From: Escherichia coli
GTDB lineage: Bacteria; Pseudomonadota; Gammaproteobacteria; Enterobacterales; Enterobacteriaceae
Assembly (NCBI RefSeq): GCF_051903065.1
Contig: NZ_CP178438.1
DNA: 64,000 nucleotides
Reading direction: 5' to 3' (one strand)
Shown: positions 48,501 through 51,500 of the stretch, one piece after another
Position numbering within the stretch: position 1 is the stretch's first letter
Layout of the letters: every line of letters begins with the position of its first letter
Made by a program: the position numbers

Positions 48501-51500
48501 TAGCCTGCTGATCCACGCGGCTGCCGGTATCATCCTGATCCACGCCATCCTGATCCATATGTATATGGCATTCTGGGTGAAAGGATCGATTAAAGGGATG
48601 ATCGAAGGGAAGGTGAGCCGTCGCTGGGCGAAGAAACACCATCCGCGCTGGTATCGTGAAATCGAGAAGGCAGAAGCGAAAAAAGAGAGTGAAGAAGGGA
48701 TATAATCTCTTTTGAACTTTAAGCTGAAAATGGCGCTGTAAAAGGCGCCATTTTCATATTGTAGACAACGTGGGCTTTGTTCATCCCGGATGCGTCGTGA
48801 ATGCCTTATCCGGCATGAAAACCCTTCAAATACAATAGATTGCAGTGAACGTGTAGGCCTGATAAGCGTAGCGCATCAGGCAATGTTGCGTTTGTCATCA
48901 GTTTCAAATGGCGCTGTAAAAGGCGCCATTTTTTATTGCGCAACCAGACGGCGTAATCGCGACACATCCACCGTTTTTTCAGCCTCTGCCAGACTCCAGG
49001 CGTTTTGCAGATTCAGCCACATTTGCGGCGAACTGCCGATCACCACGGAAAGTTTAATTGCCATTTCTGGCGTCAAAGCTGCTTTTCTGGTCAGCAATCG
49101 GCTTGCCGTTGAGGGAGCAATTTCCATTGCTCTGGCAAACTCGCGCAGGCTGACATTAAGTTCGTCCAGTGATTCCTGAATAATGTCCCCCGGGCGGGGA
49201 TGATTGGCCATTTTCATTAGTGTCTTTACTCTCAGTAGTGTTCCTTCACTGGGAACACTATCATTATTGTTCCTTCCTACGCAACAATAATCCATTTAGC
49301 CATTTCATGTTGGAGAGTGTGCGATGCTGCGACACCAGGACTGGCAGTCGCAGCAAAGGCCTCTTAGCGGCGGAAATCAATCACCATACGGCCACGGATT
49401 TTGCCTTCTTCCATCTCGGTAAAGATGGTGTTGATGTCCGCTAACGGACGCAGGGCGACTTTCGGCACCACTTTGCCTTCGGCCGCAAACTGGAAGGCTT
49501 CAGTTAGATCCTGGCGCGTGCCGACCGGCGAACCGACCACTTCAATGCCATCCAGCACAAGACGTGGGATATCCAGGCTCATAGACTCCGGCGGCAGACC
49601 GACAGCCACAACACGACCACCTGCACGGACTGCATCAACTGCCGAGTTAAACGCAGCTTTAGCTACTGCTGTTACCACCGCAGCGTGAGCGCCACCGGTT
49701 TTCTCCTGCACAATTTTGGCGGCGTCTTCGGTGCGTGAGTTAATCGCTAAATCTGCACCCATTTCGGTTGCCAGTTTTAACTGCTCATCATTGACATCAA
49801 TGGCGATCACTTTCGCGTTAAAGACATTCTTCGCGTATTGCAGGGCGAGGTTACCCAGACCGCCAAGACCGTAGATAGCAATCCACTGCCCGGGACGAAT
49901 TTTTGACAGCTTAACGGCTTTGTAGGTGGTGACCCCCGCACAGGTAATGCTGCTGGCCGCCGCCGAGTCCAGACCATCTGGCACTTTTACCGCGTAATCG
50001 GCGACCACGATGCACTCTTCCGCCATCCCGCCATCAACGCTGTATCCGGCATTTTTAACTGAACGGCAGAGCGTTTCGTTACCACTGTTACAGTATTCGC
50101 AATGACCGCATCCTTCGTAGAACCACGCCACGCTGGCACGATCGCCTGGTTTTAATGAGGTGACACCTGGACCCACTTCTGCCACCACACCAATCCCTTC
50201 ATGGCCCAGAATTACGCCGGTTTTGTCACCAAAATCGCCATTCTTAACATGAAGATCGGTATGACATACACCACAACACTCCATTTTCAGCAGGGCTTCG
50301 CCATGTTTCAGTGAGCGCAGTGTTTTATCCGTAACGTCAACATGATGAGCCTTCATAGTTCCTCCTTTTCGGATGATGTTCTGCATAGCAGGTGAGGCAA
50401 ATGAGATTTATTCGCCACTACCCAGTATGGATGAGATCTGAAAAAGGGAGAGGGAAATTGCCCGGTAGCCTTCACTACCGGGCGCAGGCTTAGATGGAGG
50501 TACGGCGGTAGTCGCGGTATTCGGCTTGCCAGAAATTATCGTCAATGGCCTGTTGCAGGGCTTCGGCAGAGGTTTTCACCGCCACGCCTTGCTGCTGCGC
50601 CATTTTGCCAACCGCAAACGCAATTGCGCGGGAGACTTTCTGAATATCTTTCAGTTCCGGCAGTACCATACCTTCGCCGTTCAGCACCAATGGTGAATAC
50701 TGCGCCAGCGTTTCACTTGCCGACATCAGCATCTCATCGGTGATACGTGACGCGCCGGAAGCAATAACCCCCAGGCCGATGCCCGGGAAAATAAAGGCGT
50801 TGTTACACTGGGCGATAGGGTAGATTTTATCTTTCCATACCACTGGATTAAACGGGCTGCCAGTGGCGACCAGCGCGTTACCTTCAGTCCAGGCGATAAT
50901 GTCCTGCGGTGTGGCTTCCACGCGTGACGTCGGGTTAGACAGCGGCATCACGATCGGACGCGGACAGTGTTTATGCATCTCACGGATGATCTCTTCCGTA
51001 AACAGCCCGGTCTGTCCTGAGACGCCAATCAGAATATCTGGTTTTACATTGCGCACCACATCCAGCAGTGACAGCACATCGCTGTCGGTATCCCAGTCAC
51101 TGAGGTTTTCGCGCTTCTGCACCAGTTTGGTCTGGAAAGGCAGCAGGTTCGGCATCTTGTCGGTCAGCAGGCCAAAGCGATCGACCATAAAGACTTTCTG
51201 CCGTGCTGCTTCCTCGCTTAATCCTTCACGCTGGGTCTGGGCGATGATCATTTCGGCAATGCCGCATCCCGCTGAACCTGCGCCAAGGAAGACGATTTTT
51301 TTCTCGCTTAACTGACCACCTGCCGCGCGGCTTGCTGCGATCAGTGTGCCGACTGTTACCGCCGCAGTGCCCTGAATGTCATCGTTAAAGGAACAAATTT
51401 CATTGCGATAGCGGTTAAGTAACGGCATCGCATTTTTTTGTGCGAAGTCTTCAAACTGCAACAGCACGTCCGGCCAGCGTTGTTTCACAGCCTGGATAAA

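Follow-up and report, generated by a model that had tools for sequence, protein, structure and literature searches.

The 64,000-nt stretch of Escherichia coli DNA analysed here (contig NZ_CP178438.1, hereafter the window) carries an adhP gene whose product seems to start differently from the K-12 protein. K-12 AdhP is an ethanol-inducible, propanol-preferring alcohol dehydrogenase of the medium-chain type that uses zinc and NAD. An initial annotation proposed an in-frame loss of six codons in the first beta-strand plus a Tyr-to-Asp change, and allowed that this could be normal strain variation. The locus raises the question whether the AdhP N-terminus is truly shortened, whether the allele is ordinary variation, and whether the encoded enzyme is likely to work.

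Identity of adhP and its translation signals

The adhP coding sequence, defined by ORF and translation, is located on the minus strand at 49364-50356 (330 codons and a stop codon). It is a delta(4-9) plus L283P allele and corresponds to RefSeq protein WP_104773295.1. The start codon, read from the sequence, is an ATG at 50354-50356 (minus strand), and an unaltered Shine-Dalgarno sequence AGGAGG (50361-50366, minus strand) lies 4 nt upstream of it. Alignment of the window with five full-length alleles showed that the 72 nt upstream of adhP are invariant in the six strains. In mRNA folding, the predicted accessibility of the Shine-Dalgarno sequence was unchanged (0.65 in the deletion allele vs 0.66 in the full-length allele). 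The start codon was unpaired at 0.30 in the deletion allele vs 0.67, a value that varies with the folding window chosen and is not decisive.

By score, domains, zinc ligands and synteny the gene is unambiguously adhP. Against NCBIfam equivalog NF006940 (AdhP, cutoff 344) its product reaches 640.6 bits and the parent allele 654.1 bits; the match spans profile positions 8-337, compared to 1-337 for the parent. The two Pfam domains, PF08240 (ADH_N, GroES-like, 94 bits) and PF00107 (ADH_zinc_N, Rossmann, 103.4 bits), score equally in the parent; the ADH_N model begins downstream of the deleted strand. In a four-way AdhP alignment the catalytic-zinc ligands Cys37, His58 and Cys145 and the structural-zinc cysteines 89, 92, 95 and 103 (K-12 numbering) are invariant, and Cys37 and Cys145 align with Cys46 and Cys174 of horse alcohol dehydrogenase (ADH). 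The NAD-binding GXGXXG region is also intact in the alignment. The gene order maeA - adhP - yddM - fdnIHG matches that of the exact-match genome, K-12, B, O157, ST131 and other strains.

K-12 AdhP (b1478, NP_415995.4; PDB 4GKV) is the product of the same gene, which K-12 has in an identical maeA-adhP-yddM-fdnI context. The two proteins share all zinc ligands and domains and are identical at 326 of 330 aligned residues outside the deletion. Unlike K-12 AdhP, the window protein lacks residues 4-9. Its Asp16, Arg214 and Arg336 are the states commonly seen outside K-12, and its Pro283 is lineage-specific. The complete N-terminal beta-strand MKAA[V/I]V is absent from the window protein through the loss of residues 4-9, and Leu at position 283 (in the GSLVGTR motif) is absent and replaced by Pro. 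The window AdhP thus departs from its orthologs at two points that are invariant among them, the first strand and Leu283.

The deletion allele retains its start codon, ribosome-binding site, reading frame and zinc ligands, and none of the classical marks of a pseudogene (frameshift, premature stop, lost start codon, insertion-sequence disruption) was found in the window adhP. Because these features are untouched, annotation pipelines call the gene an intact AdhP. In RefSeq the deletion ORF of strain 23CRST027, to whose annotated adhP the window gene is 100% identical, is listed as an intact 'alcohol dehydrogenase AdhP' (WP_104773295.1) with no pseudogene flag.

An in-frame deletion of 18 nt in a small clone

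The K-12 MG1655 b1478 gene translates as MKAAVVTKDHHVDVTYKTL, in agreement with PDB 4GKV. The K-12 N-terminus given in the initial annotation was therefore correct, and the reference does not share the short form found in the window. Nucleotide alignment confirmed the proposed in-frame loss of 18 nt. The junction is at 50347-50348 (minus strand), and codons 4-9, encoding AVVTKD (GCAGTTGTTACGAAGGAT), are missing. Compared with five full-length adhP alleles, the difference is a single clean 18-nt gap that reads ATGAAGGC[TGCAGTTGTTACGAAGGA]TCATCAT; the best placement is after nt 8 or 9 of the gene, with a 1-nt ambiguity. The loss does fall in the first beta-strand, as had been supposed: an AF2 model of the full-length allele places strands at residues 2-6 and 12-16, and the region aligns to residues 9-17 of horse ADH.

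The deletion form is rare. The adhP 5' region was matched in 5413 of 5426 complete E. coli genomes. Among the matching records the stretch examined is 369 nt long in 5404 of 5415, and it is 351 nt long in the deletion form. Only two of the 5413 matching complete genomes carry the deletion, 23CRST027 and 23CRST031 (NZ_AP045789.1 and NZ_AP045800.1), both from human faeces in Ecuador, and the window is 100% identical to these strains over 20 kb. The exact 330-aa protein was also found on at least 11 contigs from other public assemblies of different submitters (including GCA_025874605.1 and GCA_020422185.1), and a cluster look-up of the same protein returned several GenBank accessions. A 32-mer across the deletion junction gave no match in a metagenome contig collection. 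The 18-mer is the sole indel in about 37 kb between the window and its sister strain ECNB21-M121. The adhP deletion is a rare derived allele of a small clone. The view that the short N-terminus could be normal strain variation holds for residue 16 (see below) but not for the deletion, which is confined to 2/5413 complete genomes and a few drafts.

Other E. coli AdhP variants with in-frame deletions are also rare. At least nine were noted in public assemblies (P0005, P0006, P0009, P0011, P0012, P0020, P0026, P0033 and P0044), each of which has lost 5 to 25 residues while the rest of AdhP is conserved. These losses lie inside the protein (residues 42-256) and are singletons or doubletons, whereas the deletion in the window is N-terminal and is found in about a dozen assemblies. 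Outright loss of adhP is rare as well: 13 of 5426 complete genomes had no match to the 5' region and a few more had a partial one.

Residue 16 is a common state and residue 283 is a lineage-specific change

The Asp codon GAT at K-12 position 16 (residue 10 of the window protein; 50327-50329, minus strand) is the common E. coli allele. A 57-mer with GAT was found as an exact match in about 2744 of about 5415 records, and the corresponding 57-mer with TAT (Tyr16) in about 1697. In a set of 120 AdhP orthologs (at least 84% identity) this column holds Glu in 83, Asp in 34 and Tyr in three. Given the acidic residue in orthologs and the more frequent Asp16 57-mer, Tyr16 is the derived state, of K-12/B type, and the window strain simply keeps the common residue. 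The Tyr-to-Asp difference noted initially is present, but its direction has to be reversed. At positions 16, 214 and 336, K-12 and B have Tyr, His and His, against Asp, Arg and Arg in the window and in the comparators that are not laboratory strains. AdhP orthologs of other genera also carry an acidic residue at position 16, where the reference strains are atypical. A reference bias is corrected in this way, since the Tyr of K-12 and B at this residue is the unusual state.

A second lineage-specific change, absent from the initial annotation, was found at K-12 position 283. The codon at 49526-49528 (minus strand) is CCG (Pro) in the window and CTG (Leu) in all comparators; the base change (T to C) is at 49527 and was assigned to the window lineage with two outgroups. 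No complete genome other than the two with the deletion had an exact match to the 57-mer with Pro283. Leu occupies this position in 120/120 AdhP orthologs.

In an alignment that also matches up the zinc ligands, AdhP Leu283 corresponds to Tyr294 of yeast ADH1 and Ile318 of horse liver ADH (the query sequences were 100% identical to PDB chains 4w6z_A and 1adb_A). We take horse Ile318 to be a residue of the substrate pocket and the counterpart of AdhP 283; literature searches on this pocket role of Ile318 gave nothing relevant. In the horse enzyme Ile318 sits between Ala317 and Phe319, the backbone groups of which hold the nicotinamide carboxamide. The equivalent column is variable among 86 diverse near-full-length homologs (32 to 99% identity), and three of the 86, all distant, have Pro. 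The statement that Pro at 283 is never tolerated was therefore dropped as an absolute, and Pro at this position is not incompatible with the fold in principle.

Order of events and origin of the deletion

Over about 37 kb the window and its sister strain ECNB21-M121 are 99.9% identical; they differ by 13 SNPs and the adhP 18-nt indel. The AdhP of ECNB21-M121 (WP_000642407.1) is a widespread full-length form also found in O157:H7, ET350, A16 and PapRG-06-5, and represents the grandparental haplotype. The two genes are identical in nucleotide sequence except for two events, the deletion and one base (L283P), with zero synonymous changes; WP_000642407.1 keeps the 18 nt and Leu283. When ET350 and A16 served as outgroups, five SNPs and the deletion fell on the window branch. 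The derived SNPs are espR1 E224K (39482), a synonymous change in yddG, adhP L283P (49527), ddpD M150I (55085) and a synonymous change in dosP; L283P and the deletion both belong to this branch. A promoter-region SNP at 50430, 74 nt upstream of adhP, was considered as a third hit and rejected, because the outgroups show it to be derived in the sister branch.

The direct parent of the window allele is a full-length Pro283 allele (e.g., in GCA_041426215.1 and GCA_025054215.1), which already has L283P and keeps codons 4-9. By exact-sequence look-up it is present on at least 24 contigs, and the one in GCA_041426215.1 (L013) matches the window without a mismatch over 3 kb, the 18-nt gap apart. The reciprocal combination, the deletion with Leu283, was not on record in exact-sequence look-ups. 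Read as an allele series, the presence of the full-length Pro283 form and the absence of a deletion form with Leu283 indicate that L283P arose first and the deletion later, inside the Pro283 sublineage. In this sequence of events, a T-to-C transition on the widespread WP_000642407.1 background produced L283P; 18 nt were then lost from a member of the Pro283 sublineage, which removed residues 4-9 (AVVTKD).

The sequence around the junction points to a mechanism. Codons 1-3 of the window gene, ATGAAGGCT (50348-50356, minus strand), are the retained copy of an imperfect 9-nt direct repeat. Its partner ACGAAGGAT (codons 7-9), 18 nt downstream in the parent, is deleted in the window. Comparison of the parental sequence with itself at an 18-nt offset gave 7/9 matches between ATGAAGGCT and ACGAAGGAT, with GAAGG in common. 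The deleted length is exactly one repeat period (18 nt) and the first copy is retained, the product expected of replication slippage: the deletion may have arisen by slipped-strand misalignment between the two copies. The strict microhomology at the junction is 1 nt only. We infer replication slippage as the probable origin, although a primer mismatched at its penultimate base would have had to be extended.

Neighbouring loci

Two other sites of the window were noted. Between narU and espR1, at 38811-38819, the window has an empty insertion site; at the same site ECNB21-M121 carries a 1057-bp IS903B with 18-bp terminal inverted repeats and a 9-bp target duplication, CCCTTCAGA. The gene yddM (48933-49217, minus strand) adjoins adhP and is annotated as a HigA-family antitoxin, which is solitary in the window and in K-12. 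Strain CU568-3 of ST131 has a frameshifted pseudogene of a RelE/ParE-type toxin immediately upstream of yddM. This arrangement suggests that yddM and the toxin pseudogene are a decayed toxin-antitoxin pair.

Predicted effect on the enzyme

With codons 4-9 the protein has lost most of the first beta-strand of its GroES-like catalytic domain. The strand MKAA[V/I]V is invariant in 120/120 AdhP orthologs, and 60/60 listed PDB homologs have at least six more N-terminal residues than the window AdhP. No verified homolog without the first strand was found among the 86 diverse near-full-length representatives; the short-looking entries in the diverse homolog set are mostly fragments or incomplete gene calls. 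The one full-length candidate for a natural homolog without the strand that was followed up, P0157, was rejected as a mis-called start with MKALMI encoded just upstream. On its metagenome contig (L015, 289-303) the gene caller began the zinc-ADH at an internal Met; an in-frame upstream ATG, which overlaps the end of the upstream AdhE-like gene, restores the MKALMI strand.

In AF2 the window allele gave a worse model than the parent. The parent gave pLDDT 67 and pTM 0.70 vs 59 and 0.58 for the window allele (both from a shallow alignment). The full-length allele was modelled with the strands 2-6 and 12-16 as a hairpin (shallow alignment, poor model). In the window allele, from a similarly shallow alignment, residues 1-11 do not reach pLDDT 50 and the beta2 strand is missing. 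Both models are poor owing to the shallow alignments and AF2 is no predictor of stability, so the models give weak support only.

The great majority of the differences among E. coli adhP alleles are synonymous (18/22 compared with B and 29/34 compared with ST131); the gene is otherwise clearly under purifying selection in this species. K-12 derivatives that lack any one of the candidate aldehyde reductase genes, adhP included, are viable and only marginally affected (PMC3439341). AdhP is not essential, and other E. coli alcohol and aldehyde reductases make it redundant.

We consider the window adhP to be probably a hypomorphic or inactive allele that is still in frame, an early stage of gene decay in one clone. 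The delta(4-9)/L283P protein would be destabilised or inactive because a strand found in every verifiable homolog is missing and because Pro occupies an ortholog-invariant position between the backbone groups that hold the nicotinamide, and the loss would be tolerated because AdhP is dispensable and redundant. Against decay, the reading frame is unbroken and its product exceeds the AdhP equivalog cutoff by a wide margin. Moreover, dozens of assemblies carry the Pro283 allele and about a dozen the double mutant, so that neither allele does the cell serious harm.

The main rival of early decay is a neutral in-frame polymorphism: the truncated Pro283 enzyme would fold and work about like its parent and would have drifted to fixation in a small clone. 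This is possible, though we regard it as on the unlikely side. The unchanged frame, start codon, Shine-Dalgarno sequence, zinc ligands and GXGXXG region are consistent with it, as are the small drop in equivalog score (640.6 vs 654.1 bits), the Pro residues of three of the 86 distant homologs and the persistence of the allele in several independent isolates. That persistence, however, is explained equally well by the dispensability of AdhP. A neutral change would also have to be reconciled with a deleted strand that never varies in the orthologs and that every verifiable distant homolog and the 60 listed solved structures possess, with the invariance of Leu283 among AdhP orthologs, and with the strong purifying selection otherwise acting on adhP in E. 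coli.

It is rather doubtful that the delta(4-9)/L283P enzyme is folded and active with, possibly, an altered substrate range or altered cofactor handling. If it were, a medium-chain dehydrogenase could lose its universally conserved first beta-strand, or the deletion could partly compensate L283P.

Selection for the loss or alteration of AdhP activity, for example through less acetaldehyde formed from ethanol in the gut or through a changed substrate range, is improbable in our estimate. Adaptation would account for a single gene with two hits that both change the protein and with no synonymous change. Of the six derived events in about 37 kb, two fall in the 1-kb adhP (2.7% of the compared sequence), both alter the protein and none is synonymous, a distribution with a naive binomial P of about 0.01; L283P, moreover, is at the position equivalent to a substrate-pocket residue. 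The P value rises to about 0.13 once it is conditioned on the deletion having drawn attention to adhP, and an enrichment of hits in the gene is not claimed. The change does not recur either: neither the remaining complete genomes nor the metagenome contigs contain the junction, and the other in-frame adhP deletions in E. coli are singletons.

Rescue by an alternative start is highly improbable. An in-frame ATG at 50384-50386 (minus strand) lengthens the mechanical adhP ORF by 10 residues (30 nt), and since it is open and in frame with adhP, a peptide of 10 extra residues could in principle substitute for the lost strand. No purine-rich Shine-Dalgarno sequence precedes this ATG, whereas a perfect AGGAGG stands 4 nt before the annotated one. 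The full-length strains all carry the same upstream sequence, so nothing about it is specific to the deletion; the RefSeq annotations of every strain checked use the downstream ATG, and the crystallised protein also starts with MKAAVV. With no Shine-Dalgarno sequence and a sequence common to all strains, the upstream ATG was ruled out as the true start. The range initially given for the change, 50300-50386, covers the 5' end of adhP, but 30 nt of it are this mechanical extension and lie outside the gene.

A sequencing or assembly artefact, with the 18 nt present in the real genome, has a negligible chance and was ruled out: no support for it was found, the identical deletion is carried by two complete genomes and by drafts of different submitters, and the gap is a clean in-frame 18-mer, unlike a homopolymer error.

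Significance

The adhP allele is ordinary, rare lineage-specific variation in a familiar accessory gene: it is already deposited in RefSeq and GenBank under its normal name and is no new kind of feature. The parent, the L283P allele and the L283P plus delta(4-9) allele form a natural series on one haplotype for folding studies of medium-chain alcohol dehydrogenases. As the allele illustrates, a gene that is probably crippled by an in-frame deletion and a missense change can still be annotated as intact, and inferences from metabolic models and pan-genomes that count adhP as functional in this clone would be affected.
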